A DNA stretch of 52,081 bases from a virus (taxonomy: Duplodnaviria; Caudoviricetes), in the IMG/VR virus record IMGVR_UViG_3300031974_001518, positions 1-52,081 of that record; one strand, 5' to 3'. Under the pieces are notes generated by a model. That model did not search any database, was not told where the DNA came from, and saw nothing but the letters and a program-made list of their open reading frames with translations. Positions 23,269 to 51,993 of the stretch are shown piece by piece (positions within the stretch are counted from its first letter, which is position 1; each line of letters starts with the position of its first letter). The translations under genes were made by a program, and so were the position numbers.

Positions 23269-23300
23269 GGTTTATCTCCTACGAGTTTTGCATAGATATA

Positions 23301-23492: not shown

Positions 23493-23505
23493 GTCTCACT
23501 CCTAA

Positions 23506-25102: not shown

Positions 25103-26405
25103 CGTAGTCTTCCTCTGTTGGTTGAGCCACAGGCTCTTGGTTCTCAGGTGGTACGACAATCACGGTATTGTTCTTTTCGTACACTGCCCGATACATGTCG
25201 AGCTCACATGGTAGGGTGCCATGCCAGCCGTTCTGTTTGTTCTTCGAGATACAGATGTACCTCTTAGTATTCTCGGGGGATCGGTCACCTGTGCGGCCGA
25301 TGCCGATAATCAAGTCAGCCTCTCCCGCCTTACCTGTCTTGGAGTTGTCGAGGTACTGGTACTCCACGTGCATCATAGACTCTGCCTCTGCCGATGCCTG
25401 TGACACACCCCACACTAAGCACTTGTTTCTCTTAGCAATTTCTCGGGCTTGCAGGTAGATCTCCTTGAGCTTCTCATCGCCACGGTTGTACTTACCTGCG
25501 ATCTTCACTTTGTCTAACTGGTCAATGAATACGATGTCCGGCTTGTTAATCGTGCACCAGTCATCAATCTCCTGAATGGTCGTTCCAACGCAGTCGAGAA
25601 CATGCAAACGGCTACCGATCTCGCTATGCCATGCTTCCGCATACTTAACACGCCCTTCGTTGAGTTCTTTCCGCGTAGCTTTAAAATGACTCTGGATGAT
25701 GCGTAGTTTAGTTCTGACAGCCGGCTCCTCGTTGCCCCAAACCGCAACGGTAAGCCCTTGCTCGAGGAACTTCTTAGCGAGAAAAGATACGAACGTAGTC
25801 TTGCCGGTTTCCGGTCGCGCAAAGATGATTCCAAAATGTCCCCGATCCAACCCCGGAATGTAGCCGGAGAGCGGTTCCCAGTCGAATGGAAAATCAGGTT
25901 CCAACGTAAGGGAGTCCAGAAGCTCTTCGAGCCCCATGTCCACCTCCGTGTACGTCGTCTTCTCGCCAATCGAATCCTCCGCTGTACTCTCAATGAGTCG
26001 CTTGAGTTCTCCAAAGTTTTTCTCCTTACCGAGGAATATGTCAACAGACAACTGCGATATCATACGAGCGCGATTACGCATCCATAAATCACGTATCACA
26101 TTCTCTTGTAAATCTGTGTTGGTACCGATCTCATCGTTGAGGCTCTCAAAAAGCTCCCAGTGCCGTAGTCGAGTACTGTCTGGCATGGCGGGGTACAAGG
26201 AGTCAAAAAAAGCTTGTAGCTCGGCTCCTGTGATGTCTGACTTATATTTTGCATGAGCAGTGACGAGGGCTTGCCAGATGGTTGCCCACTCCCCCTCAAA
26301 CATGTCCTTCGTGAGGATGTTCTTTACACGGTCATAACATTCTGTGCGTAAACAGAACGAGATGATCTTATTCTCCAAGCATTGCTGATCTAATGAGTGA
26401 TCCAC
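25095..26405 (-). CDS. DnaB-like (SF4) replicative helicase
   Basis: Walker A ARPETGKT; IVFIDQLDK; VWGVSQA; SKTGKAGEAD; SKNKQNG. Confidence 0.9.
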   Translation of the reverse strand: MDHSLDQQCLENKIISFCLRTECYDRVKNILTKDMFEGEWATIWQALVTAHAKYKSDITGAELQAFFDSLYPAMPDSTRLRHWELFESLNDEIGTNTDLQENVIRDLWMRNRARMISQLSVDIFLGKEKNFGELKRLIESTAEDSIGEKTTYTEVDMGLEELLDSLTLEPDFPFDWEPLSGYIPGLDRGHFGIIFARPETGKTTFVSFLAKKFLEQGLTVAVWGNEEPAVRTKLRIIQSHFKATRKELNEGRVKYAEAWHSEIGSRLHVLDCVGTTIQEIDDWCTINKPDIVFIDQLDKVKIAGKYNRGDEKLKEIYLQAREIAKRNKCLVWGVSQASAEAESMMHVEYQYLDNSKTGKAGEADLIIGIGRTGDRSPENTKRYICISKNKQNGWHGTLPCELDMYRAVYEKNNTVIVVPPENQEPVAQPTEEDYDA

Positions 26406-27159
26406 GTTCAGTATCTCCTAATGACTTTAAGTCTTTATCCAGCATCAAGATGCCAGTGGGCACGAGAGTATTCAAGGCTCGCATGTATGTCAAGGCTTTG
26501 TCTGTTGCGTCTTTATCGAGAGCAACAATCACACGCTTGAACTTGGTGAGGTCTGCGATGTGTTCGTCACGTAGGCTTGTCCCTAACAAGGCGTACCCTG
26601 TACACCAGTCACTGATGCTGATGGCTGACGGTATGTCTTCTACGACGAAGACTGTGTCAGACGTGCCAATCTTGAAGCCCCCACGGTAGTTACCGTAGCG
26701 ATACCACTTGGGGCGGGCATTGATAAGGGTACGTCCTGCACCGTCCACAAGCCTACCATCATTGTCCCGTATTGCGTACACCAGTCTCTTATGTCGAACA
26801 TCGTAGTAAATGTCGTCATATCTTCCGGATGTGTTTACGCTGTCAACATACTCCAAACCCTTCTGTGAGATCTGACGTGACCACGACTTAGGCTTCTCGA
26901 AGGGGACGTTTGGACATGGGGTTGTCTTTTTATGTCCCTTATCAGTAACAATGGACAGTATGTTGTCCACATTGTTGCGGGTGACACGACGGTCAGTCCG
27001 CCCCCTCTCTGCACACTCAGCATGGAAACAATTCCACATGAGCTCACCGTTGGTGTTTGTCGCGGAGAATGTGTTCTTATGTCCACACGAGGGACAGTTC
27101 ATCCTGCGGGACTCGCCATCGAAAAGTCCGAGGGACTCGACGTATTCTCTGATGTACAT
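26368..27159 (-). CDS. DNA primase (zinc finger plus TOPRIM)
   Basis: CPSC...CFHAEC zinc ribbon; VVED, ALLGT and ALDKDA TOPRIM motifs; GAGGAGG Shine-Dalgarno. Confidence 0.88.
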   Translation of the reverse strand: MYIREYVESLGLFDGESRRMNCPSCGHKNTFSATNTNGELMWNCFHAECAERGRTDRRVTRNNVDNILSIVTDKGHKKTTPCPNVPFEKPKSWSRQISQKGLEYVDSVNTSGRYDDIYYDVRHKRLVYAIRDNDGRLVDGAGRTLINARPKWYRYGNYRGGFKIGTSDTVFVVEDIPSAISISDWCTGYALLGTSLRDEHIADLTKFKRVIVALDKDATDKALTYMRALNTLVPTGILMLDKDLKSLGDTERGSLIRSAMLGE

Positions 27160-27200
27160 GGGCTAAAAGCCTCCTCAATGTTTTAGTGATCGGAAAAAAG

Positions 27201-27252
27201 CTTACCATCCCTTCTCCGAAAAAATCCACCCATTTCAAAAAATCTTACCATC
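27201..27252. repeat. Pair of CTTACCATC motifs (27201-27209, 27244-27252)
   Basis: The same 9-mer, preceded by A-tracts, also occurs at 29453, 29505 and 31688. Confidence 0.75.
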
Positions 27253-27266
27253 CTCCCTCCAAAAGG

Positions 27267-27295
27267 TTGCGCGTTGCTTCGATCCATGATACATT
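27267..27295 (+). promoter_or_regulatory. Sigma70-like promoter for the early block
   Basis: TTGCGC-17 nt-TACATT with an extended TG. Confidence 0.6.
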
Positions 27296-27394
27296 CCGAT
27301 CAACCCCTGCCGGGGGTACATCCCCTCATACCCCACCGCAACACATAAGTTTCTTACGCAACATACTTGTTTCATCTACGACCAAAGTCTAGTA

Positions 27395-27414
27395 CCCCAA
27401 TGGTAAGCCGTCGT
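27395..27414. repeat. Left arm of a 20-bp inverted repeat (partner 31937..31956)
   Basis: CCCCAATGGTAAGCCGTCGT; its reverse complement matches 31937-31956 at 19/20. Confidence 0.8.
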
Positions 27415-27453
27415 TTATTGTGGTGGTTCATTCACGAGACGGGAGAAGTTAAC

Positions 27454-27705
27454 GTGATAAAACGCATACACATAAACCAACATAACATCAGGCATAACGC
27501 AAAAAACCCCGACGACTTGCGCCCGGTTGTTTCCGTAAAAACAAGCACCGGAAACCACAAGGGTTTTAATGCGACTGTTCATGGTGCTGTGAGTATTGTA
27601 TATTCACCAGACAAGCCGCTATCTTGTGGTGCTAAAGTTTGGATACAAACGCATGACACTGTAACGATTGAGCAAGAAGACGGATCAACCATAGGGATAT
27701 TTTGA
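27454..27705 (+). CDS. Conserved small phage protein
   Basis: GTG start with GGGAG Shine-Dalgarno; KRIHINQH...VYSPDKPLSCGAKVWI. Confidence 0.7.
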   Translation: MIKRIHINQHNIRHNAKNPDDLRPVVSVKTSTGNHKGFNATVHGAVSIVYSPDKPLSCGAKVWIQTHDTVTIEQEDGSTIGIF

Positions 27706-27706
27706 A

Positions 27707-27886
27707 ATGCAGTACATTAGTGATAAAGAAATCCTTGATAGGATCGAGAGCAAGGAAGTTAGTGAATTAGTACGAGAGCGTTTTGAATTAAAAGACAAGC
27801 AACGAGAGTGGTCACAACAGAGAGTCAATGTTGCCGCAGAACATATTGGGCATAGTGTAATTAATGAACTCATGGAGGAATATTGA
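27707..27886 (+). CDS. Hypothetical protein (59 aa; not in the ORF track)
   Basis: MQYISDKEILDRIESKEVSELVRERFEL... fills the gap between neighbours exactly. Confidence 0.5.
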   Translation: MQYISDKEILDRIESKEVSELVRERFELKDKQREWSQQRVNVAAEHIGHSVINELMEEY

Positions 27887-27887
27887 A

Positions 27888-28223
27888 ATGATTGCACAAG
27901 AATACCGAAACATAAAACCACACTTTGTACACGCGGAGCATATGCCGATGGTACGCCGGTGGTCTTGTATCCTACTCGACCAAGATACAGAGAACCCACC
28001 CTTTGAACCGGCGCGGTACTTTGTTGCCAATGTATTTGCAGAAACAAAGGAACAGGTACTGGATTGTTTAGGTGAGGAGTATCCGTGGTGCGACATTATG
28101 TATGTCGATAAAGCACTCGGCGGCCACACTGACGACGATTTCTTGGAGAGTTGGCTACATTACTTTGACGCAAACAACACACAACCATTAAGGGAAGCAC
28201 CACATGGCAACGCTAGTAATTAA
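27888..28223 (+). CDS. Hypothetical early protein
   Basis: ATG with GGAGG Shine-Dalgarno. Confidence 0.55.
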   Translation: MIAQEYRNIKPHFVHAEHMPMVRRWSCILLDQDTENPPFEPARYFVANVFAETKEQVLDCLGEEYPWCDIMYVDKALGGHTDDDFLESWLHYFDANNTQPLREAPHGNASN

Positions 28224-28443
28224 GGAAGGGGAGAAACCCTACATTGAGGATATCTGGAACCTTGACGATTTCCGCAATGTCGCTGACGGATACGATACCG
28301 AGACTTTTACTGATGAGGAACTGGTTCAGGCAATGGAGAGAGTAGCGGATAACTTTGACGCAAACGAGGGGATAACGTGGGAGACCCTTGAAGCCGGTCT
28401 TGATTTCGTAGTTTGGATGCGTAAAAGGGAGGAGACGAAATGA
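28204..28443 (+). CDS. Hypothetical acidic early protein
   Basis: FDANEGITWETL motif. Confidence 0.6.
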   Translation: MATLVIKEGEKPYIEDIWNLDDFRNVADGYDTETFTDEELVQAMERVADNFDANEGITWETLEAGLDFVVWMRKREETK

Positions 28444-28646
28444 TTATGACAAGCAGGAACGAGAACAAAACCCGCGTAGATTATCTTGTATACAAACAAG
28501 TAAGCGAAGCACTCGACCACCTAAAGAAGGCCGCGACCTTGATACATGACACCGGAGAGACCGAATCCGACCGGTTGGACAAGGCCGTTTGTTTTACGCA
28601 AGATGCGGTTGATCAACTGGATTACTTCCTGAAGGAGAACGCATGA
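28440..28646 (+). CDS. Hypothetical protein
   Basis: GGAGG Shine-Dalgarno and ATGA coupling. Confidence 0.55.
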   Translation: MIMTSRNENKTRVDYLVYKQVSEALDHLKKAATLIHDTGETESDRLDKAVCFTQDAVDQLDYFLKENA

Positions 28647-28909
28647 GACCACGTACAATTTGTCATCCTGAAGCACTCGCAGACTGGAGAGCAAATGATG
28701 AGGATGCACACAGTTATTTATCAACAATACAAGAACAAATCAATATCGGGAGAACACAAGATGCAAGTACACGTGAACATAGTACGTACGACAACAAAGT
28801 ACAAAAAGAGCAAGAGAAGTTTGAAGGACTACTCGCACGACGTATTGAAGAAGCCATCGAGCGCGAAAATCGGAAGCGCGGGACGATACGTAAAGAAGGG
28901 GAAGCTTAA
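28643..28909 (+). CDS. Hypothetical protein overlapping the Gp88-like gene
   Basis: AAGGAG Shine-Dalgarno and ATGA coupling. Confidence 0.45.
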   Translation: MRPRTICHPEALADWRANDEDAHSYLSTIQEQINIGRTQDASTREHSTYDNKVQKEQEKFEGLLARRIEEAIERENRKRGTIRKEGEA

Positions 28910-29447
28910 AGGTGCTGAAGTTTATACGTTAACACTGACCGAGCGGGAGACTTGTCCGCAGTCTTGTGGACACTGGGACGATTGTTACGGAAACAATATG
29001 CCATTCGCGCACCGGCTTGAGCATGGCAAGGAGCTTGAGGATCGATTGATCGAGGAGGTAGGGGAGAAGTGTCGGAAGGCCGCTAGTAAAGACCGTAAGG
29101 TATTGGTTCGCTTGCATGTACTGGGAGACTTTTACAGTGTTGCTTATGTACAACTATGGCGGAAGCTTATGGTCTTGCACAAGAATCTCTATGTCTGGGG
29201 ATACACCCACGTCACGCCATCCGATAACTTGCAAATCTACCACGAACTCACACTGGCTCGGGACGGGTTTCCGGAGAGGTGGCACGTACGATGGAGCGAT
29301 ACCGGCGGGAAGTTTAGTGCGAACAGTGAGGAACTCGGGACGACTGGTATTGTGTGTCCAGAGCAGGAAGGGAAAACGGCGGCGTGTACGACTTGCAGTC
29401 TGTGTTGGGATGCACCAGACAAGAACATCATATTTAAGACACACTGA
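28761..29447 (+). CDS. Gp88-like protein (Cys-rich, radical-SAM-related phage family)
   Basis: TCPQSCGHWDDCYG, VRLHVLGDFYS, WGYTH and CPEQ...CTTCSLCW...IIFKTH. Confidence 0.7.
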   Translation: MQVHVNIVRTTTKYKKSKRSLKDYSHDVLKKPSSAKIGSAGRYVKKGKLKGAEVYTLTLTERETCPQSCGHWDDCYGNNMPFAHRLEHGKELEDRLIEEVGEKCRKAASKDRKVLVRLHVLGDFYSVAYVQLWRKLMVLHKNLYVWGYTHVTPSDNLQIYHELTLARDGFPERWHVRWSDTGGKFSANSEELGTTGIVCPEQEGKTAACTTCSLCWDAPDKNIIFKTH

Positions 29448-29452
29448 AAAAC

Positions 29453-29519
29453 CTTACCATCACCAATCAAAACAGGACGGGAACTTTCGACCACATGAAA
29501 AAATCTTACCATCACCAAT
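29453..29519. repeat. Direct repeat CTTACCATCACCAAT x2 (29453 and 29505)
   Basis: 15-bp identical units 52 nt apart in intergenic DNA. Confidence 0.8.
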
Positions 29520-29639
29520 TCGATATTGCGCGGGGCTTGCACCCCGCTAGTTTCCCAAAAATAGAACTTGGGGAGGGATTCAGCTTGATCGCTCAAGTTT
29601 CGTTTCTTTTCGCGATACTTTATTTACTTTAAAAAAGTG

Positions 29640-29668
29640 TTGCGGTATGTCTTTTTTTGACATACAAC
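29640..29668 (+). promoter_or_regulatory. Sigma70-like promoter with AT-rich UP element
   Basis: TTGCGG-17 nt-TACAAC, followed by a hairpin (29676-29697) and AAGGAGG Shine-Dalgarno. Confidence 0.5.
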
Positions 29669-29718
29669 ATGCTTACCGGATCGGACAGGCCGACCGGATC
29701 TAAAGGAGGCTTTTAGCC

Positions 29719-30726
29719 ATGAACGCAATAGTAAACAACCCAGAGCGCACCGCTCAGCGTATCCAAGATGGCTTGGAATTTACGCACAGCAATCCGCTTG
29801 ACGTTGACTTCTTCCGTGAACTCGGAAGCGTCCAAAAAGAGGCGATGTATGACCGCGACCGAAACTTGATCGACGGTTACTACGCACTACGCAACAGCAA
29901 CACCCAGAAACTCTTGGGATCGCCGCCGGTCACCAAGTCGTACAAACTGGTTGATCACGCATTGGCATTCAAAGAACAGGCCGAAAGTATTCTACGGAAT
30001 CCCTCGTTGCCGCATGAAAATCTGACAGTCGTTGATCGGATCTTTGACGAAGGCCGCCGCGCAACCCGCGCTGTTTACTTCAACGACCTCACTTTCGACA
30101 TTGACGGGAAGGGGCAGGGGATTACAGCCCGCGCCGACATTATCAACAGCGTCGATATGTCTTGGGCGTTTCAGGTCTTCTCTGGTGCCTATCGGGATTA
30201 CTGCCGTAATACCTGCGTCTTTGGCGGCCAGAAAGCCTACCACCAAAAGCGAAAGCATACGTCAAATCTCAGCGTCGCCGCGATGATCGAGAAGAGCACT
30301 CTCGGTCTCGGGATGTTTACGTCCCACCGCGACCAAATGGACAAATGGCGGACAATCGATCTCGACCGCTCGCAATGGGTTGAGATTCTCGAGAATACGA
30401 TCTGCAAGAAGGGAGGGGAGGCCGCCCAGCTTTCGGTTGATCCTACCGCTCGGGTCAATGGCCGCTTATTGGATTACATGAACCACCGGTTTAACGAGGA
30501 ACAGCGCGAGTTGGGCTCGACTATGTGGGGGGCATACAATGCGCTCACCCATTGGGCAACCCACGTCGACGAAACATGGGAACGCCAGAACGACGATGGC
30601 TCAGTGTCCGAACTGACCACGGGGCGCGAGAAGTCGAACCCGTACCGCATCAGACTGCAACGGGAAGCGAAGGTGCGGAATGTACTCGAGTCGCCGCACT
30701 GGCTCGCATTGGAACAGGCCGCATGA
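29719..30726 (+). CDS. DUF932/DUF945-like protein
   Basis: YKLVDH, INSVDMS, R..C.NT...KRKHT and TMWGAYNALTHWATH. Confidence 0.7.
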   Translation: MNAIVNNPERTAQRIQDGLEFTHSNPLDVDFFRELGSVQKEAMYDRDRNLIDGYYALRNSNTQKLLGSPPVTKSYKLVDHALAFKEQAESILRNPSLPHENLTVVDRIFDEGRRATRAVYFNDLTFDIDGKGQGITARADIINSVDMSWAFQVFSGAYRDYCRNTCVFGGQKAYHQKRKHTSNLSVAAMIEKSTLGLGMFTSHRDQMDKWRTIDLDRSQWVEILENTICKKGGEAAQLSVDPTARVNGRLLDYMNHRFNEEQRELGSTMWGAYNALTHWATHVDETWERQNDDGSVSELTTGREKSNPYRIRLQREAKVRNVLESPHWLALEQAA

Positions 30727-30812
30727 TCGACATACTCGGCCTACTCATCAAGGGGGGCGCGTTATTCGCGCTCACCGTTTTACTACTCATCATTTTGAAA
30801 GCAATTGCTTAG
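30723..30812 (+). CDS. Small single-TM peptide (29 aa)
   Basis: MIDILGLLIKGGALFALTVLLLIILKAIA; ATGA coupling. Confidence 0.45.
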   Translation: MIDILGLLIKGGALFALTVLLLIILKAIA

Positions 30813-30826
30813 AGGATTAAGAAACC

Positions 30827-31261
30827 ATGAAAACATTTGACGAATTCAAGACCGACCTCGGCACACTACGCACCGACCTAAACGCGACAACCTACCGCGT
30901 CGAAAAGGTGCAGGAGCTTCTCAGCGACCTAGTTGAGAAACTGGACGGGATCTATGACCAGTCAGTATCGAACAAGGATCAGGCCGTTGACCTTGTCCGC
31001 GCTGTCGATACAGTCAAACCACGTCAACAGGATCGCCGCCTGTTTGCGAGCCATTACCGGATGCTCGCCATTCTGAACGAATATGGCGCGATGCATCGTG
31101 AGCACGTTGCCGCATTGCTTGGGGTCAAGGATCTCACCGTCCAACAAATGCTCCACGTTTGCCGGCATCACGGACTCGCCCAGTTGAAAACGCGGCGCGG
31201 TGTTGTTAGTCTTCAATCACTGGCCGATGGGGTCAGCAATAACTCAAACTTCAAAATCTAA
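30827..31261 (+). CDS. Coiled-coil plus winged-HTH-like protein
   Basis: N-terminal heptads; REHVAALLGVKDLTVQQML resembles an HTH. Confidence 0.55.
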   Translation: MKTFDEFKTDLGTLRTDLNATTYRVEKVQELLSDLVEKLDGIYDQSVSNKDQAVDLVRAVDTVKPRQQDRRLFASHYRMLAILNEYGAMHREHVAALLGVKDLTVQQMLHVCRHHGLAQLKTRRGVVSLQSLADGVSNNSNFKI

Positions 31262-31271
31262 GGGGAACCCT

Positions 31272-31484
31272 ATGAAAACCGAAACAACCTTGAACTTCAC
31301 AGCCGAGCAACTCAACGAACTGAAGCGCATTGTCGATACCGTTGGATGGTCAACGCGCGACGAAAAGACCGGCCATATTGATACTTATGTGTCAGAGAAC
31401 CGCGTCAAATTCGCGAAGGATCTTGCCGGTGTTCTTGGCCGTATGGATACAGCCGCAATCGTTGGGACATCCGAAGGTCTTTAG
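31272..31484 (+). CDS. Hypothetical protein
   Basis: AGGGG Shine-Dalgarno; last gene before the terminator. Confidence 0.55.
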   Translation: MKTETTLNFTAEQLNELKRIVDTVGWSTRDEKTGHIDTYVSENRVKFAKDLAGVLGRMDTAAIVGTSEGL

Positions 31485-31506
31485 GCCTACCTTTCCCTCA
31501 TCTTTG

Positions 31507-31531
31507 CCCCGCTCAATGCGGGGTTTTTTTT
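31507..31531 (+). terminator. Intrinsic terminator of the early block
   Basis: CCCGC-tcaat-GCGGG followed by a T-run. Confidence 0.8.
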
Positions 31532-31936
31532 GTCCCCACGACAGCCTACCTTTGGGGCTTCCCCCGTACTCCCGCCGGTACACCCAGAAAAATACCTAAG
31601 GTCTTGATTCTACTGGCCGTGGGGATATTTCGGGGTGTCGGGGGATTTCTAGGGAACCGCCCCGACATTTCGCCGAAATCCTAAATTCTTACCATCGGTG
31701 TTAAACAGACGGGTGCGCCGGACGCGATAAGGGAGGGGAAACCGGCACGGTAAACCTACGGATAGGCCGGCGGGAGTTTCGACAGGCTCGGTGAGGTTTA
31801 CTATCTGGATGATAAGAAGAAAAAAATCAATAACTTAGGGGTAGGCAAGGGTCACTGGGGGTACCCGTACTAGTGCTAGCAATCTCCCCATATTTTTTAT
31901 GGTTTTAGAAAGGGGTGTTTCACGCCAATGTTTCAC

Positions 31937-31956
31937 ACGACGGCTTACCGTTGGGG
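31937..31956. repeat. Right arm of the 20-bp inverted repeat (partner 27395..27414)
   Basis: ACGACGGCTTACCGTTGGGG. Confidence 0.8.
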
Positions 31957-32009
31957 GCCCCAGTAGCCCCAGAGGCCCCGACGGCTTGCCCAATGGTAAC
32001 CAGACAGGC

Positions 32010-32102
32010 AAAAAGAAGCCCCGACAGCAAGGGGATACTGTCAGGGCTATGGGGCGGGTGGTAAGCGGGGGTAGTGTGAGGGGTTTACCCCGGTGGGCTT
32101 AC
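32010..32102 (-). ncRNA. Candidate ~90-nt small RNA
   Basis: Bounded by a near-consensus promoter (32109-32137) and a terminator GCCCTGACAG-10 nt-CTGTCGGGGC-TTCTTTTT; no ORF inside. Confidence 0.55.
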
Positions 32103-32108
32103 AATCCC

Positions 32109-32137
32109 ATTGTACTGCTCAGATTCGCATCCGTCAA
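32109..32137 (-). promoter_or_regulatory. Strong leftward sigma70-like promoter
   Basis: Minus strand TTGACG-17 nt-TACAAT. Confidence 0.75.
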
Positions 32138-32183
32138 TACCTACGGAAAATATATTTTTTTTCTCTTAAATTACATGTTCTTG

Positions 32184-32213
32184 TTGACAGAATTAACTAA
32201 CGGTATCCATAAT
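32184..32213 (+). promoter_or_regulatory. Sigma70-like promoter for the packaging/structural operon
   Basis: TTGACA-18 nt-CATAAT, back-to-back with the leftward promoter across an AT-rich spacer. Confidence 0.65.
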
Positions 32214-32383
32214 GAACCTGTACCGGGGCCGAAATGGCAGGGGAAATCAACTTTTATAGTCCAAGTGAACCAAAGTTCCGAGACCACGGGCCCCCATGTA
32301 CACCCTTTATTCCCTTTTATGCGCGTAAAAAGATACGATAATTACTTTTTTCGTACATATCTAGCACATATGCGTGGTAATCC

Positions 32384-32788
32384 ATGAACCTCCTCCCCCA
32401 GCAACGGAAGAAACGTGAACTCTCCGACCAACAGCAAGCTTTCCTCACCGCACTCTTCGAGAACGGCGGTAACTTCTCGAGAGCTTGCGAGGTGTCGGGT
32501 TACGCGCAAGGTTCCATCGGCCACCTCAAAGAGTCTTTGGCTGACGAGATTATCGAAGGAGCACGGAATATTCTTGCAGGTGGAGCTCTCAAGGCCGCGA
32601 ACAAGCTTGTACGGACCATCGACGCGCCGGAAATCGAGCGTGGAGATAACATACGGCTCCAAGCCGCCGAGTCTCTCCTCAATCGAGTGGGTCTCGGGAA
32701 GCAAGAAACTCATAATGTCAACGTCCAAGCTGTACATGGGGTGGTACTACTCCCCCCGAAGAAAGAGATGGTTGTAGACACCCAGTAG
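32384..32788 (+). CDS. Terminase small subunit (putative)
   Basis: LSDQQQAFL..LF...GN...A..SGY HTH-like start; directly upstream of TerL. Confidence 0.7.
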   Translation: MNLLPQQRKKRELSDQQQAFLTALFENGGNFSRACEVSGYAQGSIGHLKESLADEIIEGARNILAGGALKAANKLVRTIDAPEIERGDNIRLQAAESLLNRVGLGKQETHNVNVQAVHGVVLLPPKKEMVVDTQ

Positions 32789-32791
32789 TTT

Positions 32792-34495
32792 ATGTCGGAT
32801 ACACCCGAAGAGACAGTCCCGAAGAAACGTGGACGCCCAAAAAAAGACCCGAATGCACCCAAAAGCCGTTATAACCTCTCGACGGCTGAAAAAGCCCGTC
32901 GGGCAACACAGGCGAGTATCCGACGGTCCAAAAAAGAGGCGGAAAGGAAGAAAGCGGCCGCCGAGAAGCAAAATCAGAGAGCAAATCAACGAATTAGAGC
33001 CGCCTCGAAGGTAGAAACAGCCCTCCAAGGCGAAAAGTCACGTGTAATCGACCAAGGAGACGTGAATGCACTACCTAAAGCTGTTCAAGATCTCGTTGGC
33101 GAATCTGAGGTTGTCTTTAAAGCGAACGAAGGACCTCAGGAAGACTTTCTCAGTGCCCCTGAACAGGATGTTCTATACGGTGGGGCGGCCGGAGGCGGAA
33201 AGAGTTTCGCTCTTCTTGCTGATCCTCTCCGCTATTGTCATAACCCAAATCACCGCGGGCTTCTTTTACGCCGTACTCTCGATGAATTGACTGAACTCAT
33301 ATCGAAGTCGAGACAATTGTATCCCAAAGCGTTTCCCGGTGCCGTATTCCGTGAAAGTAAGTCGACGTGGGTCTTCCCCTCTGGGGCTACTATATGGTTT
33401 TCCTACCTCGATAAAGATAAAGACGTAACACGATACCAAGGGCAAGCATTTAACTGGATCGCCATCGATGAAATTACCCAGTACCCCACCTCCTATGTCT
33501 GGGACTATCTACGGTCACGTCTTCGTTCAACAGACCCCGAGCTCTCTCAAAATCTCTCCATGCGTTGTACGGCAAACCCCGGCGGAGTTGGAGGATGGTG
33601 GGTCAAAAAGATGTACATCGATCAGGGAGACCCCGGTAAGCCTTTCGTTCCCACCGATCTGGAGTCAGGAAAGGCATACGTATACCCTGAGGGACATGAG
33701 AAGGCAGGCAAGCCGCTCTATTGGCGAAAATTTGTACCGGCCCGCCTCACCGACAATCCATACCTCATGCGGGACGGACAGTACGAAGCAATGCTCCTTT
33801 CCTTACCAGAGGTGGAGCGTAAACGCTTGCTCGAAGGAGATTGGGATGTCGCCGAAGGTTGTGCATTCCCCGAGTTCCATAAGTCCAAGCACGTTGTCGA
33901 TCCTTACGATTTACCCACCAACTGGCCGAGAATCAGAGCGGCCGACTACGGCTACGCAAGCCCTTCGTGCATACTCTGGGGTGCAATCGATTGGGACAAC
34001 AACATATGGGTCTATCGAGAACTTTACGTAAAACACTTTACAGCGGAGCAATTGGCCGCTAAAATATTGGAGTTAGAGGAGTATGATCCCCAGATGCACT
34101 ACGCAGTGCTGGACTCCTCCTGCTGGAACCGTGTAGGTTACGGCCCTTCCATCGCTGAGACGATGATACGGATGGGATGTCGTTGGACACCCTCAGATCG
34201 TAACAGAATATCAGGCAAGATGGAAATCCACCGACGACTCGGGGATAACGAGTTCACCGGAGAGCCTACAGTTAAGTTCTTCAACACGTGCACAAATATA
34301 ATAAAACAACTCGCTGGAATCCCACTATCTAAAACAAATTCTGAGGACGTAGACACGAAGGCTGAAGACCACGCCTATGACGCGCTACGTTATATGTTGA
34401 TGACACGAACCTCAGGTTACGTCTCTATCCACAAAACACTCAACGACATCAAGAATAGCACGTTCCAGCCACAGGATTCAACCTTCGGATATTAA
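32792..34495 (+). CDS. terL: Terminase large subunit
   Basis: Walker A YGGAAGGGKS; Walker B IAIDE; coupling motif TANPGG; nuclease motifs AADYG and EDHAYDALRY. Confidence 0.93.
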   Translation: MSDTPEETVPKKRGRPKKDPNAPKSRYNLSTAEKARRATQASIRRSKKEAERKKAAAEKQNQRANQRIRAASKVETALQGEKSRVIDQGDVNALPKAVQDLVGESEVVFKANEGPQEDFLSAPEQDVLYGGAAGGGKSFALLADPLRYCHNPNHRGLLLRRTLDELTELISKSRQLYPKAFPGAVFRESKSTWVFPSGATIWFSYLDKDKDVTRYQGQAFNWIAIDEITQYPTSYVWDYLRSRLRSTDPELSQNLSMRCTANPGGVGGWWVKKMYIDQGDPGKPFVPTDLESGKAYVYPEGHEKAGKPLYWRKFVPARLTDNPYLMRDGQYEAMLLSLPEVERKRLLEGDWDVAEGCAFPEFHKSKHVVDPYDLPTNWPRIRAADYGYASPSCILWGAIDWDNNIWVYRELYVKHFTAEQLAAKILELEEYDPQMHYAVLDSSCWNRVGYGPSIAETMIRMGCRWTPSDRNRISGKMEIHRRLGDNEFTGEPTVKFFNTCTNIIKQLAGIPLSKTNSEDVDTKAEDHAYDALRYMLMTRTSGYVSIHKTLNDIKNSTFQPQDSTFGY

Positions 34496-34497
34496 GA

Positions 34498-36111
34498 ATG
34501 GCAGAATTTGACCCGAATACAGTCACAGTAGGCGAACTAGCGAAGATCTACTCGGAAGAGCAGGAGCTTGTTAACCCATTAAACTTGGGCACTATCCTGA
34601 AAGAGTACAAAGATCAGCCTGCTTTGGCTTTTTTTGCAGAAGAAGAAGGTCAGCTTTCTCTAGCTCGTCAGGCGATAAAAGACGCTCAAGGGACTGCTAC
34701 TGAAAACGCCGTAAAGGGTGCGCTAAAGAACATGCGCTACCTGAGTAATCGTCTGTACAATGCATATGATAGAAATCCTCCACCTTTCCTTATCTCCAAC
34801 GAAAAGAACACACCGAAGATAGCTCAAGAGTTTTTTGGTGTCAAAGAGCCGCCAAAAGCTGTTTCGACGTTACAAGTAAACACAGATCCTGAAGTTCGTA
34901 AGCAGTACGTACAAGAACTCATGGACTACGCGGCGAATAACCCAGACAAGAAGCCCCACGTACGGGCGATTTTATTTGGACTAAATACCGGGTTCCGTCC
35001 TAATGCCAATATCGGTGTTACAACAGGACAATATATCCCTTCTAAAGGTGCGCTCTACATTCGTCCTGAAGTAACGGGAGCCAAAGGTAGACCTATCTCT
35101 GTTCCGCTTAATGATATTGCGGATTCGATGTTGCAACAACAACTCGCAGATTACAAGGACGCGATTTCATCTACTGGTAAAATTTGGGTAGATGCAGAAG
35201 GTAAGCCTTTAAAAACTTCCGATATTAACGCTGTTCTTGAAGAGATTAAAGTACCTAACCTAATTTACGATGAAAAGACAGGTGAATACTTCGACTCTTT
35301 TAAACCAAAGGATACTGATGGTACTAAATTCGGAATGTCTTTGTTCCGTAACTATCACACCGCGGTAGGTCGTAAGATCGGAATGAACGATCTCATTCTC
35401 GCCAAGCTACAAGGGCGGAGTACGAAAAGCTACGGTAAAGGCTCTACAGGTGAGTTGTCGACATATGACTCCAACTTCCCCGGTGATGTATCAGACTACG
35501 AGCGTGAGCAAGCCAACATGCTGACCGAAGAGTATGGTCCTGCTATTGAAACAGCAAAGAAGAATACCCGTAGCCTAGTCGACCCTACTTTCGACTTCGA
35601 CTGGGGTGGAGACTACGACACAGTCAAGACACGCATCACAGAGCGCACAGAAGGCTTTGGGAGCGACTATTTCAAACGAGAGGTAGTAGCCCCTTCCGAA
35701 ACGGCTACATCCGCTCCTAAGGCTCCTAAGGGGCTCACAGAGGAAGAGAAGGCCGGCGTTCTCAAAAGATTGACGGACTGGTCGAAGGGAGCTCTCGATA
35801 GCCCCACGACAAAAGCCATCGCTGGTATCGGTCTCACCGGTATGGGGATATCCGCCGCGCAAAGACTCGAAGCGGCAGAAGAACGTGTTTCGGCTGGTGA
35901 AGGCGAGATGCCTGCCTACCTCAAGGAAGGTGCACGGTTTGTTGCAGAAGAATTTACTCCTGCGGGGTTCGTTGAACCTGCGAAGGAAGTAATCGGTGCC
36001 GGTCTCAAAGCGGGGGCTGAAGCGGCACAGAAAGAAGCGGAAGAGAAGGGCATCTCCGGAGATATTGAAGCCCAGATCAGAAGCGTACTCGGAGTTCCCC
36101 CGCAGTTCTAA
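34498..36111 (+). CDS. Tyrosine recombinase-fold protein with a long C-terminal extension
   Basis: LNTGFRP (R167), GAKG (K196), ISVPL, SLFRNYH (R284), LQGRS and downstream Tyr (Y312/Y323), in canonical order. Confidence 0.65.
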   Translation: MAEFDPNTVTVGELAKIYSEEQELVNPLNLGTILKEYKDQPALAFFAEEEGQLSLARQAIKDAQGTATENAVKGALKNMRYLSNRLYNAYDRNPPPFLISNEKNTPKIAQEFFGVKEPPKAVSTLQVNTDPEVRKQYVQELMDYAANNPDKKPHVRAILFGLNTGFRPNANIGVTTGQYIPSKGALYIRPEVTGAKGRPISVPLNDIADSMLQQQLADYKDAISSTGKIWVDAEGKPLKTSDINAVLEEIKVPNLIYDEKTGEYFDSFKPKDTDGTKFGMSLFRNYHTAVGRKIGMNDLILAKLQGRSTKSYGKGSTGELSTYDSNFPGDVSDYEREQANMLTEEYGPAIETAKKNTRSLVDPTFDFDWGGDYDTVKTRITERTEGFGSDYFKREVVAPSETATSAPKAPKGLTEEEKAGVLKRLTDWSKGALDSPTTKAIAGIGLTGMGISAAQRLEAAEERVSAGEGEMPAYLKEGARFVAEEFTPAGFVEPAKEVIGAGLKAGAEAAQKEAEEKGISGDIEAQIRSVLGVPPQF

Positions 36112-36134
36112 AAACTTAGCTAAGGAATAATAAA

Positions 36135-36335
36135 ATGAAATACTCAGAAGCAGACATCATGAATGCTGATAAAAAAGGCATCGACTACAATTGTGGCGAA
36201 AACAACCTGTACCGTGAAAGTGCAGACTTCGACACAGTAGCAAAGACAGACGTATTGATCGAAAACGCACCTAAGTCAGGTAAGAGCGCACCTCTCGACT
36301 CTATGATCTTAAACTCAGATAAGCAACCTGTATAA
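36135..36335 (+). CDS. Small conserved protein upstream of portal
   Basis: AAGGA Shine-Dalgarno; 66 aa. Confidence 0.6.
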   Translation: MKYSEADIMNADKKGIDYNCGENNLYRESADFDTVAKTDVLIENAPKSGKSAPLDSMILNSDKQPV

Positions 36336-36347
36336 AGGTAATTAAAT

Positions 36348-38432
36348 ATGTCTGACGGGTTTATCCAACCTGCGGATGATGGACAGGTACAAGTCCAGAA
36401 CGCCGCGGAGCAAATGCCGGGATTAGCTGGATTTATCCAGAACCGGTTCGAGGATTCTGAAAATGGACGCCGCACGTTCGAGCAACGGTGGCTCCAAGCA
36501 TACAAGAATTTCCGCGGCATTTATGATTCATCTACACAGTATCGTGATTCCGAACGCTCCAAAGTGTTTATTAAGATCACGAAAACTAAGGTCTTGGCGG
36601 CTTACGGCCAGATCATCGACATTCTCTTCGCGAATAAAAAGTTCCCGATTGTGGTGGAGTCTACTCCCGTACCTGAAGGAATCGCAGAGTTTGCAAAGAT
36701 GCCGAGTCCTGTGGATCAAGTGTTGGAAGACCCGTACGGATATCCGGGGGATGGGCGTGAGCTCGAACCCGGTGCTACCCGTCTCGGTCCCTACTCCGCC
36801 AGTGGTGCGGTAGAGGGCAAAGCCCGTATCGGCGAGCCACAGGTAGAGCCAGCGGCTGAGGCGGCCCGCATACTCGAGAAGGTCATCCATGACCAGTTGC
36901 TCGACACCAACGCAGTGAACGTATTGCGTAACTCTGTTTTTGAAGCGTCACTTCTCGGTACGGGTATCGTGAAAGGGCCTTTCAACTTCTACAAGCGTGT
37001 CCACAAGTGGGAGCGTGATGAGGAAGGAAGCAGGATGTACACCCCGGATGAGAAGGTGACTCCACGTATCGAGCACGTCTCTTGTTGGGATTTCCACCCT
37101 GACCCCTCCGCAACGAGTATCGATGACTGTGAGTACGCTATCCAGCGTCACCGCATGAATCGCCAGCAGTTGCGTAACCTAATGAGTTTACCGTACTTCG
37201 ACTCCGTCGCGATTGAGAATGCGATTGTGAAGGGGCCGAACTACGAAGACAAGTACTACGAAGACACTATCCGTGAGGATGATACCGAGCCGTACTACCA
37301 AGAGAATCGGTATGAGGTTCTCGAGTACTGGGGAATGCTCGACGCGAAGCTAGCCCGCGAGGTTGGCCTTGAGCTCCCTGAGAATATTAACGAATTAGAT
37401 CAGGTGCAGATCAATGCGTGGGTGTGTGGCACGGAAGTTCTCCGTTGTGTACTCAACCCATTCACACCTGCACGTATTCCATTCCACGCTTTCCCTTACG
37501 AAGTTAACCCTTACCAATTGTGGGGCGTCGGAGTTGCAGAAAACATGGAAGATGCACAGATGCTCATGAACGGGCACGTGCGTATGGCAATCGACAACTT
37601 GGCCCTCGCAGGCAATCTCGTATTCGACGTGGATGAGGCAAGCCTCGTTCCCGGCCAGAACTTCGATATATTCCCCGGTAAGGTTTTCCGGAGACAGTCT
37701 GGCGTCACAGGTACAGCGATCAACGGGCTCAAGTTCCCGAACACTGCCCCTGAGAATATCCAGATGTACCAGATTGCTCGCCAGTTGTCGGATGAAGAGA
37801 CAGGTATCCCGAGCATCATGCACGGACAGACCGGTGTATCAGGCACAGGCCGCACCTCCTCCGGTCTATCAATGTTGATGAATGCAGGAGCGCAGTCAGT
37901 CAAGACAGTGATTAAGAACATCGATGACTACATGTTGAAGCCCCTCGGGGAAGCGTACTTCCAGTGGAATATGCAATACAACGATGAGTCGCCGGATGTT
38001 GTTGGGGACCTCGAGATCAAGCCACGGGGCACTTCGGCTGTTATGCAGAAAGAAGTTCGCTCACAGCGTCTCACAACTCTTCTCCAGACTGTTGCAAATC
38101 CGATGCTCGCTCCGTTTGTCAAGTTACCAAACTTGGTTCGCGAGCTCGCTATCGCACAGGACATCGACCCCGACCAACTCGTGAATGATGTCAATGAAGC
38201 CCAGCTATACGCTGAAGTACTAAAAGGTATGCAGAATGTTCAACAAGGAACAGGCCCAGAAGGTGGCCCCGCTGGTCAACAACCCGCAGGCATGGGAAGC
38301 CCTGACGGCTTATCTGGCGGATCTCCACCAGTTGACGCTTCGGGGGTTGGTAACAGCACAATCGGAACGGGAAATGTTCCAGTTGCAGGGGAAGATGGCT
38401 TTACTGGACAGCCTCCAGAGCCTCAAGGATAA
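36348..38432 (+). CDS. Portal protein
   Basis: 694 aa after TerL; WLQAYKNFRG, FIKITKTKVLAAY, DFHPDP, WGVGVAE, RMAIDN.ALAGN and GRTSSGLSMLM. Confidence 0.88.
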   Translation: MSDGFIQPADDGQVQVQNAAEQMPGLAGFIQNRFEDSENGRRTFEQRWLQAYKNFRGIYDSSTQYRDSERSKVFIKITKTKVLAAYGQIIDILFANKKFPIVVESTPVPEGIAEFAKMPSPVDQVLEDPYGYPGDGRELEPGATRLGPYSASGAVEGKARIGEPQVEPAAEAARILEKVIHDQLLDTNAVNVLRNSVFEASLLGTGIVKGPFNFYKRVHKWERDEEGSRMYTPDEKVTPRIEHVSCWDFHPDPSATSIDDCEYAIQRHRMNRQQLRNLMSLPYFDSVAIENAIVKGPNYEDKYYEDTIREDDTEPYYQENRYEVLEYWGMLDAKLAREVGLELPENINELDQVQINAWVCGTEVLRCVLNPFTPARIPFHAFPYEVNPYQLWGVGVAENMEDAQMLMNGHVRMAIDNLALAGNLVFDVDEASLVPGQNFDIFPGKVFRRQSGVTGTAINGLKFPNTAPENIQMYQIARQLSDEETGIPSIMHGQTGVSGTGRTSSGLSMLMNAGAQSVKTVIKNIDDYMLKPLGEAYFQWNMQYNDESPDVVGDLEIKPRGTSAVMQKEVRSQRLTTLLQTVANPMLAPFVKLPNLVRELAIAQDIDPDQLVNDVNEAQLYAEVLKGMQNVQQGTGPEGGPAGQQPAGMGSPDGLSGGSPPVDASGVGNSTIGTGNVPVAGEDGFTGQPPEPQG

Positions 38433-38463
38433 CCATAGGGCGGTGATCGACAATGGCGGTTAA
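38236..38463 (+). CDS. Small post-portal protein overlapping the portal C-terminus
   Basis: Amphipathic helical protein (LVNNPQAWEAL...EMFQLQGKMALLDSL) of the type found after podovirus portals. Confidence 0.6.
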   Translation: MFNKEQAQKVAPLVNNPQAWEALTAYLADLHQLTLRGLVTAQSEREMFQLQGKMALLDSLQSLKDNHRAVIDNGG

Positions 38464-40435
38464 CTACGGTAGCGGCTACAACATCTACTCCTCGATTCGG
38501 AACAAGATCCGGTCGAAGAAGGCGTACAAGAAGTATTACGGTGAGATGTCCGCTCTCTACGGTGAGCAACAGGCGGCGGAGCAGGCCGAGGCTGGAATGG
38601 GGGAAGACCCTACTCCGGGTCCTATCAGTAGGTCTACGCTCGGTGACGAAATACCCGGACAGGGTGCTGTTTCTGGAGCAGGTCCAGCAGGACCGGGACT
38701 CCCCGGACAGTTTTCGAGTATGATCGGAGGGACGTTTGCCAGTGGCCCCGGTGGCGCGATGCAAATATCGGCCGACCAGATTGGAAACATAAGTAGTAGT
38801 GCAGAGCAAATGACGTCGGGCGAGTACGCTATTTCTCAGGCGACCCCCTACGGTATTGGCGCGGATATCGCCAAAGCAACAGGTTTTGAAACTGCCGGTA
38901 TACTCGCTGAGAACCTCGTCTCTTTAATGGACGTTTCTCCCTTCGGTATGATCAGCGGCTTCATGGCTGGTACAACAGTTAAGGGACCCTACGGAAAAGA
39001 CATGGCAGTACCGGGCGGAATCCTCGGTGCCGTTGCCGAAATGAACATCAAGAACCAGTTCGAGGTTGCGGAAAAAATCAAGGCCGGCGAACTCGGCTAC
39101 CACCAGATGCGGGTCAACGGGTCACTGGTTTCCATTGTTCCCCAAACACTATTCGGCAAGCAACTCGGGTACGCTGTTCTCGGTACGTACAATGGAACAA
39201 GTCAGCAAGCGATCAACCAATATGCTTCGATGCAAGGGCTCGACCCCCGCACCGTAGATCTCGGGGCGAGTTCCGGACGAGTGGAGGGGCAACCCCTCGA
39301 TGGTTTTATTCAAGGGGTTGGCGGATTTACGAATGACGGAATGTTTGCGTCCCCCCTTACGGGTGAAGTGACGAGTGTTGCGGACTTTGATATGGGGGGA
39401 ATCCGCTCCCAAGTCGGTCTCGTGAATTCAGTATACGGTCCCGAGAAAGCAATGAACGTCGTGAATGGTCTTACGGGGTTGAGCGACAGCACTCGGGGAA
39501 GCCTTGCGGAGGGTATCGCGAGCGGTTCGTTGACTGCAAACCAAGTCGTTGACAATGATGGTAATGTAGTCGGCTTCTCTACAATGACTGGTAATGTTGT
39601 CCGCTCTGCGGATGGTATCGTGACCAGTGCGGGAGGTCGCCCTGTTACATCAGGCACAGGCATTATTAGTATTGAACAGGTGGAGAGAGCACAGGAACAG
39701 GCAGAGGCGGATGCATCGGGTAGTGGCTTAGGAATGGGAGTCGGTAGATTGCCCGGATACTCAACAATTTCTGGAAGAACTGGCATGACCACAACGGGTG
39801 CCGGGGAAGGAGCTTCTGTTTCATCCGGTAGAGGTACCGATGCGGCTAACGTGGATTCAGGTAGAGGGGGCATGGGTCCTTCTTCATCAGGCCCGAGTTC
39901 TGCGTCTGCTAGCCCAAGCGACGCTCCGGGTACTCCATTCGCTGAAGGCGGTGTAGTAAATCCTGCTGAGCAAGTCCCTCCCGGCGAAGCACCCATTGCT
40001 ACAGAAGCAGGCTTTGTTAAGACAGAACCCGAGAACGTATCTCCAGCAGAAACTATCGCTGACGATCAAGCGTTAGAGGTTCCGGAAGGTACATTCGTGC
40101 TCAATGCGGCCGCTGTCGAGTTCATGGGATCGGCTGATGTTAAGAAGATGATCTTGGATGCGATGCAAGAGGCTGAGAAGCAAGGTATTGACATCAAGCA
40201 GGATAACGCTAAAATAGCTAAGGAGGACCTTGTATCTTTGGTAGTATCCAAGGGTGAAGTGATTATTCCTCCCCAGCTTGCCGAAATCATCGGTTATGAC
40301 CGCCTAAATAAGATTAACAATCGTGGTAAAGCTGAAGTTCAAAGACGTTCAGACGAAAAGGAGCAGATGAAAGAAGCCGCTCCTACACCCCCAATTTTAG
40401 CAAAATCAGGTGGATTTATCTCCAAGCCCTCCTGA
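38453..40435 (+). CDS. Gly/Ser-rich putative virion protein
   Basis: 660 aa; FAEGG then ADD...EGTFVLNAAAV...SKGEVIIPP C-terminal domain. Confidence 0.6.
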   Translation: MAVNYGSGYNIYSSIRNKIRSKKAYKKYYGEMSALYGEQQAAEQAEAGMGEDPTPGPISRSTLGDEIPGQGAVSGAGPAGPGLPGQFSSMIGGTFASGPGGAMQISADQIGNISSSAEQMTSGEYAISQATPYGIGADIAKATGFETAGILAENLVSLMDVSPFGMISGFMAGTTVKGPYGKDMAVPGGILGAVAEMNIKNQFEVAEKIKAGELGYHQMRVNGSLVSIVPQTLFGKQLGYAVLGTYNGTSQQAINQYASMQGLDPRTVDLGASSGRVEGQPLDGFIQGVGGFTNDGMFASPLTGEVTSVADFDMGGIRSQVGLVNSVYGPEKAMNVVNGLTGLSDSTRGSLAEGIASGSLTANQVVDNDGNVVGFSTMTGNVVRSADGIVTSAGGRPVTSGTGIISIEQVERAQEQAEADASGSGLGMGVGRLPGYSTISGRTGMTTTGAGEGASVSSGRGTDAANVDSGRGGMGPSSSGPSSASASPSDAPGTPFAEGGVVNPAEQVPPGEAPIATEAGFVKTEPENVSPAETIADDQALEVPEGTFVLNAAAVEFMGSADVKKMILDAMQEAEKQGIDIKQDNAKIAKEDLVSLVVSKGEVIIPPQLAEIIGYDRLNKINNRGKAEVQRRSDEKEQMKEAAPTPPILAKSGGFISKPS

Positions 40436-51984: not shown

Positions 51985-51993
51985 GGAACTGAT

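Follow-up and report, generated by a model that had tools for sequence, protein, structure and literature searches.

Why should a tailed phage carry a gene resembling a tyrosine recombinase between its terminase and its portal, and what might the product do there? The question is raised by the IMG/VR virus record IMGVR_UViG_3300031974_001518 (Duplodnaviria; Caudoviricetes), which was analysed over its whole length of 52,081 nt and is called the window here; it is listed by IMG/VR as 'linear' and has a CheckV completeness of 97%. The gene, which we call X, follows that of the terminase large subunit (TerL). A preliminary description, made from the letters of the window and its translated open reading frames (ORFs), had seen in X a divergent tyrosine-recombinase-like protein with unusual substitutions at catalytic positions. 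We find that X belongs to the tyrosine recombinase superfamily, with the catalytic R-K-R-(H/R)-Y set intact, and that its slot is occupied by a fixed, hypervariable gene that is replaced as a whole cassette between otherwise near-identical backbones. X and the predicted parts of its product are located as follows.

34498..36111, plus strand: gene X, ATG start, 537 residues; tyrosine-recombinase-fold protein, hypervariable cassette of the putative packaging operon.
34498..34860, plus strand: core-binding (clamp) domain, residues ~1-120, placed by structural alignment; no arm-binding domain in front.
34870..35550, plus strand: catalytic domain, residues ~125-350, with R167, K196, R284, R307 and Y323.
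35551..36108, plus strand: C-terminal extension, residues ~351-537, delimited by invariant alignment columns, the model and assortment.

The Pfam profile PF00589 (Phage_integrase) scores 25.0 bits against the X ORF (residues 134-251; gathering cut-off 27.1) and 27.3 bits in a six-frame search of the record, where X is its only match. The PHROG family phrog_216, 'integrase', matches X at 2e-6, and a sequence search of PDB chains gave nothing meaningful (best E value 0.24). Homologues of X were collected from metagenomic data, 39 proteins by a word-indexed search and 55 representatives at E <= 0.001 among 1.84 billion proteins, and the conservation of catalytic residues was counted in a 59-sequence alignment of homologues reaching down to 19-25% identity. 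The only invariant columns are G165, R167, R284 and Y323 (59/59); R307 (58/59), K196 (57/59) and G306 (56/59) are nearly invariant. The residues that the preliminary description had singled out as R167 (within LNTGFRP), K196 and R284 are therefore conserved in 59, 57 and 59 of the 59 sequences, respectively, and the R/K/R/Y set, on whose conservation that description had staked its reading, is kept among the homologues. It had also pointed to two tyrosines, at 312 and 323. Y323 stands, while position 312 is Tyr in just 10 of the 59 and so is not the nucleophile.

The two substitutions that had been noted, SLFR for HxxR and LQGR for LGH, are borne out by the alignment. At position 281, which is the His of HxxR elsewhere, the homologues have Ser (16), Gln (15), a gap (12), Pro (6) or Arg (4), and the Arg of LQGR is the nearly invariant R307. 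The canonical His of HxxR and the His/Trp of the third box are thus both absent from X's own group; a His is found three residues past R284 (H287) in 46 of the 59. The third-box and HxxR positions vary in accepted members of the superfamily (Trp in Cre and Flp, Lys in topoisomerase IB), so the loss of both His residues does not exclude X from it. No usable precedent for a third-box Arg came out of a literature search.

An AlphaFold2 model of X, computed on the 59-sequence alignment, has a mean predicted local distance difference test (pLDDT) score of 82.6 and a predicted template modelling (TM) score of 0.71, with residues 1-390 mostly above a pLDDT of 90. All 50 of the matches listed in a Foldseek search of the PDB with this model are tyrosine recombinases. 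A search of BFVD gave 27 matches at E <= 0.001, mostly named integrase, with a nudivirus VLF-1 model at rank 44 (E 5.7e-3). Structural alignment of the model gave the following Z-scores (VIA-align).

XerA: Z 13.7, 256 residues aligned.
Methicillin-resistant Staphylococcus aureus (MRSA) integrase, 3nkh_A: Z 13.3, root-mean-square deviation 2.9 A over 162 residues.
Tn1549 Int: Z 13.2, 258 residues aligned, model residues 8-313.
Lambda Int: Z 12.4; core 1ae9_B, Z 12.0, 154/164 residues aligned.
XerH: Z 11.4.
IntI: Z 11.2.
SSV1 Int: Z 11.0, 156/160 residues aligned.
Cre: Z about 10.
Flp: Z 9.8.
Human topoisomerase I: Z 7.8, catalytic domain only.

Model residues 8-9 fall on residue 74 of lambda Int and residue 81 of Tn1549 Int, and model residue 1 falls on residue 19 of Cre. 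As the alignments begin at model residues 1-9 and at about residue 74 of lambda Int, the model consists of a clamp and a catalytic domain and lacks an arm-binding domain; the modelled architecture is that of the simple, two-domain recombinases such as Cre and Xer. The recombinase fold, on which the preliminary description had made its case depend, was found both by Foldseek and by structural alignment. Its suggestion that the His substitutions point to a telomere resolvase or a topoisomerase IB relative fares worse, as the fold is nearer to Xer, lambda Int and Tn1549 Int (Z 12-14) than to topoisomerase I (Z 7.8). A non-catalytic, repressor-like use of the fold (YopR, Z 7.3; SroF, Z 8.7) was considered and is ruled out by the invariant catalytic residues.

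The place of X is constant. Among 73 IMG/VR loci retrieved with X, the order TerL-X-portal in one orientation is kept in 56, and in the remaining 17 the contig stops short of one flank; no other neighbour of X was found among the 73. In these loci the identity to the window is 72-94% for TerL, 69-90% for the portal, 86-96% for the capsid protein and 28-89% for X. In two distant members, L082 and L083, TerL is 92% and 87% identical to that of the window and the portal 82% and 81%, and X is 28% and 24% identical.

Retrieval by the portal avoids selection on X. At least 597 stretches in IMG/VR encode a close relative of the window's portal, and the best 80 of these were used. TerL and portal are both present in 64 of the 80, and in all 64 a single ORF of 546-759 residues lies between them, in an interval of 1.9-2.5 kb. 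These slot ORFs form 14 clusters at 30% identity (eight multi-member and six singletons), and at E <= 0.001 a profile built on the family of X picks up only 19 of the 80 loci. Profile-profile comparison links most of the clusters to the X family with probabilities of 96% (c3), 92% (c6), 90% (c2), 85% (c4), 84% (c8), 78% (s1) and 58% (c5). Three singletons (L118, L126 and L149) score low in this comparison; PF00589 matches the first two weakly and L149 not at all. For 16 representatives of other allele clusters the PF00589 matches are weak or absent, with 17-23 bits in four.

A joint alignment of 57 distinct slot proteins shows the same catalytic set throughout: the first Arg in 57, the Lys in 55 and the second Arg in 57. 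The third catalytic site is His in 35 and Arg in 22, with a preceding Gly in 51. Since Gly-His is found in 35 of these same-slot proteins, the LQGR of X in place of LGH is one allele type among several. All 57 have a Tyr 6-27 residues past the third site, at a position that is constant within clusters; since a Tyr may well fall in such a stretch by chance, this shows consistency and is not proof. The cluster typified by L091 has no Pfam hit, and its model is weak (pLDDT 59.4, with the catalytic part at about 75-93); even so, lambda Int (4.3e-6), XerH and Tn1549 Int come first among its 22 matches at E <= 0.001.

The borders of the variable region are those of the gene. DNA similarity to the window ends at 34397-34536 in 58 of 60 loci (the start codon of X is at 34498) and resumes at or beyond 36122 in all 60 (the stop codon ends at 36111). 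Of 29 loci with a TerL at least 85% identical to that of the window, six have BLAST-detectable similarity to residues 1-395 of X and 23 have none. The N-terminal and C-terminal parts of X assort independently. Loci L097, L099 and L109-L111 match residues 396-537 and not the N-terminal part, the 16 loci that match the N-terminal part have no match to the tail of X, and the homologues P0003 (69% identical overall) and P0022 (48%) carry the tail of the window's protein almost unchanged. The slot ORFs of L130, L139, L148 and L118 (690-759 residues) have some 100-150 additional N-terminal residues before the clamp domain; residue 1 of X aligns with residue ~139-147 in L130 and L139.

The C-terminal extension begins with a block at residues ~351-395, FDxG...R...YF (D368, G370, R379, Y391, F392), that is modelled with confidence. 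Beyond it come a linker, a Gly/Ala-rich uncharged segment, Ala/Glu-rich helices and the motif EEFTPxG (P488), and the pLDDT falls below 70 past residue ~400. The uncharged stretch is AIAGIGLTGMGISAA at residues 440-454, and the tail that had been noted earlier (residues ~340-537) is thus present. Most slot proteins, whatever their cluster, have, within the final 40% of the chain, an uncharged Gly/Ala-rich segment 14-19 residues long, with a Kyte-Doolittle mean (~1.1-1.8) below that of a typical membrane helix. Residues 340-537 have no similarity by BLASTP or phmmer to any ORF of the window, including the putative scaffold and a 660-residue protein described below, and an ESM Atlas search with residues 396-537 gave no usable lead (feature scores 0.81-0.82, TM score <0.5). 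The tail may localise X to the capsid, the portal or a membrane.

The surroundings of X comprise the following features.

32184..32213, plus strand: sigma-70-like promoter TTGACA-18-CATAAT upstream of terS, 11/12 consensus positions; a consensus match only.
32384..32788, plus strand: probable terminase small subunit gene (terS), with 39-40% identity to a 'putative terminase small subunit' stretch of phage HTVC033P; phrog_51, E 0.09.
32792..34495, plus strand: TerL; phrog_979 at 2e-59, PF03237.
36135..36335, plus strand: orf66, a small acidic protein of 66 residues, with a tblastn match in most portal-reaching related loci.
36348..38432, plus strand: portal; PF23899 at 3e-28, phrog_332 at 1e-80, phrog_1216.

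The stop codon of TerL (TAA, 34493-34495) is followed by GA and by the ATG of X at 34498, a gap of 2 nt that confirms the junction as first described. In L082 and L083 X abuts TerL, starting at the base right after its stop codon. A further 23 nt separate X from orf66, which precedes the portal. The protein of orf66 is 73% and 70% identical to that of the window in L082 and L083, in which X has diverged so far. It has no assigned family and marks the right border of the cassette; a tblastn search for it in HTVC033P and HMO-2011 found none. The promoter at 32184-32213 is the best sigma-70-like match of the region and is largely conserved in three relatives, with the TTGA of the first hexamer and CCATAAT invariant in the four-sequence alignment, and a terminator-like hairpin at 31506-31524, just before it, closes the preceding unit. 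Given this promoter match upstream of terS and the hairpin before it, the simplest reading of these consensus matches is that terS-TerL-X-orf66-portal forms one late operon, with 32184-32213 as its likely promoter. The position of X flush with TerL, in the order terS-TerL-X-portal, fits the late packaging context that the preliminary description had proposed. The conserved promoter lies in a non-coding stretch of ~900 nt upstream of terS (31485-32383). After it comes a predicted leader of ~100 nt (about 32215-32310) that is almost invariant in the three relatives and has complementary GGGGCC/GGCCCC ends. This leader region may be a structured RNA or a packaging (pac) region; Rfam gave no match.

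The phage itself has its replication module on the minus strand (primase, DnaB-like helicase, family A DNA polymerase, ribonucleotide reductase, Cas4-type exonuclease and an endonuclease VII-like protein) and its structural and packaging module on the plus strand. By capsid protein its nearest cultured relatives are the HMO-2011-type podoviruses, with Pelagibacter phage HTVC033P at the top (58.5% identity), the CRP-series roseophages at 40-46% and HMO-2011 at 38.2%. The 153 related contigs are all metagenomic, the longest having 54,055 nt. The clade is common in marine and estuarine data, and at least half of the sampled words of a 10-kb stretch are present in six runs from two studies, four of which may represent the source sample. 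The carriers of X look like an abundant, uncultured marine clade, lytic-looking kin of the HMO-2011-type podoviruses.

Some other features of the window were noted. Its ends repeat each other (129-268 and 51942-52081, 140 nt, 94% identity) and carry tail-fibre-like paralogues (ORFs 181-1290 and 49564-51984; phrog_19943 and phrog_24898), which could come from a circular or permuted assembly that was not closed cleanly, or else from fibre genes in tandem. The DNA polymerase is seemingly split on the minus strand (21275-25159) into an exonuclease part (24063-24614) and a polymerase part (21275-22816), separated by ~1.2 kb of short ORFs without an assignment; the gene of an HNH endonuclease (24614-25159) lies directly upstream. 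A Gly/Ser/Ala-rich protein of 660 residues right after the portal (38453-40435) has no Pfam or PHROG family and ~130 residues that are conserved among relatives, and a tail-region ORF of 1668 residues (8259-13265) has no PHROG family; both are candidate internal or ejection proteins.

As to the role of X, its intact catalytic set, the terminase and portal context, its universal presence, the allelic replacement and the tail lead us to infer an enzyme of packaging or entry; since X would be synthesised along with the proteins of packaging, its most likely substrate would be the DNA of the phage itself at these stages. We thus favour, tentatively, a simple Cre/Xer-type recombinase that is made with the packaging proteins and acts on phage DNA at packaging or entry. 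Produced from the putative late operon terS-TerL-X-orf66-portal, X could act ahead of packaging, where it would turn multimers and junctions left by replication or recombination into DNA fit for packaging. It could also act after packaging, in which case its C-terminal tail would hold it in the capsid and, once delivered, it would rejoin the permuted genome on entry or close it into a circle, in the way of Cre in P1. Cleavage would proceed through a 3'-phosphotyrosyl link at Y323. Rather unlikely in our judgement is the more far-reaching version in which X is the first tailed-phage tyrosine recombinase of the packaging and entry machinery, loaded in the capsid or held at the membrane by its Gly/Ala-rich tail, circularising or protecting the entering genome and hypervariable through an arms race or co-evolving DNA specificity; it would then parallel, in a bacterial virus, VLF-1 of baculoviruses and the topoisomerase that poxviruses encapsidate.

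Several known systems bear on this reading. Cre of P1 and the Xer proteins (XerC/D/H/A) share with X the two-domain clamp without an arm-binding domain and the R-K-R-Y core. X differs from them in having Ser/Gln for the HxxR His and, in its own allele group, Arg at the His/Trp site, in adding a C-terminal extension of ~190 residues, in its seemingly translationally coupled place next to TerL in a putative late operon and in its hypervariable alleles; a lox- or dif-like site for X was not found in the window scan or in the slot genes. In P1, the pac site has cre and loxP close by, and on entry the terminally redundant genome can be closed into a circle by Cre. Lambda Int and Tn1549 Int (PF00589) are also like X, with Z 12-13 over ~250 residues, a borderline PF00589 match and allelic diversity at a fixed position. 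X differs from these in having no arm-binding domain and no non-coding DNA beside it for an adjacent phage attachment site (attP) and in lying inside the packaging operon, not in an early or lysogeny module, and no excisionase, repressor or prophage copies were found in the scans reported below. The tyrosine-recombinase-family protein VLF-1 of baculoviruses and nudiviruses is described, in an excerpt of a 2024 structural paper, as acting in genome packaging and nucleocapsid assembly (PMC11654684); it belongs to eukaryotic large DNA viruses and has no detected sequence similarity to X, whose own packaging or virion role is an inferred one. The tyrosine recombinase gp143 of the lytic Caulobacter phage phiCbK has been proposed to resolve replicative or recombinational multimers, according to an extract of its description (PMC3556154). 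It resembles X in belonging to a phage without temperate behaviour, but it has 208 residues, comprises the catalytic core only and lies in the replication module, whereas X has 537 residues, with a clamp and a tail, in the TerL-portal slot. In the same broad group as the window, HMO-2011 has its portal directly after TerL and HTVC033P has four small ORFs between the two, both without an X-like gene.

A number of points weigh against a packaging or entry enzyme. A housekeeping role in resolution leaves the hypervariability of X unexplained. The phage already has an endonuclease VII-like resolvase (18519-18899, phrog_945) and a Cas4-type exonuclease, so the task of clearing junctions is not obviously vacant. 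A tblastn search of 50,697 phage records found no cultured phage with X, whose presence in the virion is conjectural. No target site was found: a lox-like scan of the whole window (arms 11-15, <=1 mismatch, spacer 4-10), which would miss degenerate sites, gave as its one intergenic hit an 11-bp pair with a 10-nt spacer at 32017-32048, which can also be read as a terminator hairpin. Within the slot genes seven inverted repeats were counted against 2-7 in shuffles, so there is no enrichment. The remaining points concern integration: the nearest structures of X are integrases and phage tyrosine recombinases are mostly integrases, the missing prophage copies are an argument from silence, from scans that were pattern-limited or sampled, and some HMO-2011-type phages integrate, according to an excerpt of a survey of the group (PMC9038755).

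X may be a phage integrase, and this is a real possibility although we hold it to be on the unlikely side: it would insert the genome at a specific site in a host gene, with or without stable lysogeny, its alleles would correspond to different attachment sites as in lambdoid phages, and attP would lie inside coding DNA or elsewhere. Among the closest structures are Tn1549 Int, lambda Int and the MRSA integrase, the BFVD matches are mostly so named, and two homologues carry an 'integrase' label in a source. Divergent alleles, a fixed locus and whole-gene replacement make a pattern like that of integrase modules, of which extreme allelic diversity at a fixed locus is typical; integrases make up most phage tyrosine recombinases, and integration without lysogeny has been reported for T7-like cyanophages. 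The survey of the group (PMC9038755), in its available part, reports an int gene in some HMO-2011-type phages and integration by CRP-3; their int is placed upstream of the replication module, outside the packaging operon, and for subgroups IV-X no identifiable lysogeny genes are described. X itself is flush with TerL and orf66, with just 2 nt and 23 nt of non-coding DNA beside it, which leaves no room for an adjacent attP outside coding DNA. It also has no arm-binding domain, and its C-terminal extension would be dispensable for an integrase. The window has no tRNA, partial tRNA or other RNA match, an Rfam scan at E <= 1 giving only a sub-threshold histone stem-loop match at 15662-15687. A search for a bacterial attachment site, comparing 26001-40000 with 401 sampled genomes of one bacterial class, gave chance-level matches of 23-43 bp in 21 (E 4.5e-4 to 1e-2 per genome) and one 245-nt match (67%) in the portal gene; the family profile gave three marginal matches (24-26 bits) in the same 401 genomes. 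A pattern-limited scan of 185,579 species genomes found no relatives of X, and a scan of these for the capsid protein, which is 86-96% identical inside the clade, gave at best 57% over the full length; a shorter match of 98 residues, on a contig of 2.9 kb, reached 79%. Neither a repressor nor an excisionase was found when 36 large ORFs, 51 small ORFs and the six that surround X were scanned with the PHROG profiles, in line with the lack of a lysogeny module remarked on earlier, although divergent regulators could escape such profiles. As these negatives are limited by method and sampling, we do not rate an integrase lower than this.

Two further explanations concern what makes X so variable and what DNA it would act on. 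X could be a conflict or selfish module, either an injected or late enzyme in an arms race with host defences or co-infecting relatives, or a self-promoting cassette that cuts or recombines the same locus of rival genomes, like the free-standing homing endonuclease genes beside conserved phage genes. Such a reading would account for the hypervariability, and it draws on the 23 of 29 close relatives without detectable similarity to residues 1-395, on cassette borders at the start and stop codons, on the independently assorting modules and on the neighbours of X, two genes that rank among the best conserved in the clade. We consider it improbable: a slot filled in 64 of 64 loci is a poor fit to a selfish cassette, homing genes being sporadic in distribution, there is no recognisable target repeat at the cassette borders, and changing DNA specificity explains the diversity equally well. 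Tyrosine recombinases are not known as homing enzymes. Very improbable, finally, is an end-processing enzyme of another branch, whether a hairpin-making telomere resolvase, a type IB topoisomerase-like packaging swivel, or an invertase of the segment between 27395-27414 and 31937-31956 or of the fibre tips. TelA and poxvirus topoisomerases do occur among the lower-ranked matches of the L091 model, and topoisomerase I aligns to the catalytic domain; yet the recombinases score ~5 Z units higher and align over the clamp domain as well. For a telomere resolvase the window lacks a long palindrome, the sole case with arms of at least 12 nt (<=2 mismatches, spacer 0-3) being a weak one at 20355. The invertase can draw on a 20-nt inverted pair, 95% complementary, in two intergenic regions (27395-27414 and 31937-31956), which the preliminary description had put forward as a recombination target flanking an invertible cassette. 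Its core, CGACGGCTTACC, is however part of a motif family. The window has two direct copies of it in front of terS, L001 and L002 have two or three, and it is also found upstream of terS in L106, L108 and L112, which carry unrelated alleles of X. The repeat is therefore not allele-linked and is not supported as the target of X; it behaves like a regulatory or packaging signal of the backbone and unlike a cognate site. Nor do the joints listed support inversion, as mapping of read contigs from four runs on 26001-40000 gave short skips and no strand change in the 15 joints listed (18 others exist; contigs only). The X interval is thinly covered in three of these runs, which we do not take as evidence. 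Fibre-tip swapping, also proposed earlier, has the two tail-fibre paralogues in its favour, but these lie on the same strand and have no flanking inverted repeats.

Other intergenic repeats of the window were recorded at 27187-27252, 29440-29519 and 31674-31696, and also at 27395-27414 and 31937-32001. There are five intergenic copies of the motif ...AAAAA(N)CTTACCATC... in all. A related motif, CGACGGCTT(A/G)CC, has two direct copies and one inverted copy, and one motif copy makes the small palindrome GCTTGCC-CAAT-GGTAA(C/G)C. These motifs, which are kept in relatives whatever their X allele, are candidate operators or phage promoters.

Our searches of open-access literature brought up no earlier account of a recombinase gene in a terminase-portal slot. 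The survey of HMO-2011-type phages, in its excerpted text, reports several subgroups without lysogeny genes and does not mention an X gene (PMC9038755), and the 2024 structural paper, in the portion available, states that the use of a tyrosine recombinase in packaging is not known outside baculo-like viruses (PMC11654684). If X is an integrase, these phages are capable of integration, and ecological models in which they count as strictly lytic would need revising. If it is an enzyme of packaging or entry, it would represent a new use of the integrase fold in tailed phages. Either way, the slot holds a natural library of dozens of divergent recombinases, apparently active as judged from their catalytic residues, in one conserved context, which would be useful for studies of the evolution of site specificity and as a source of new recombinase tools.

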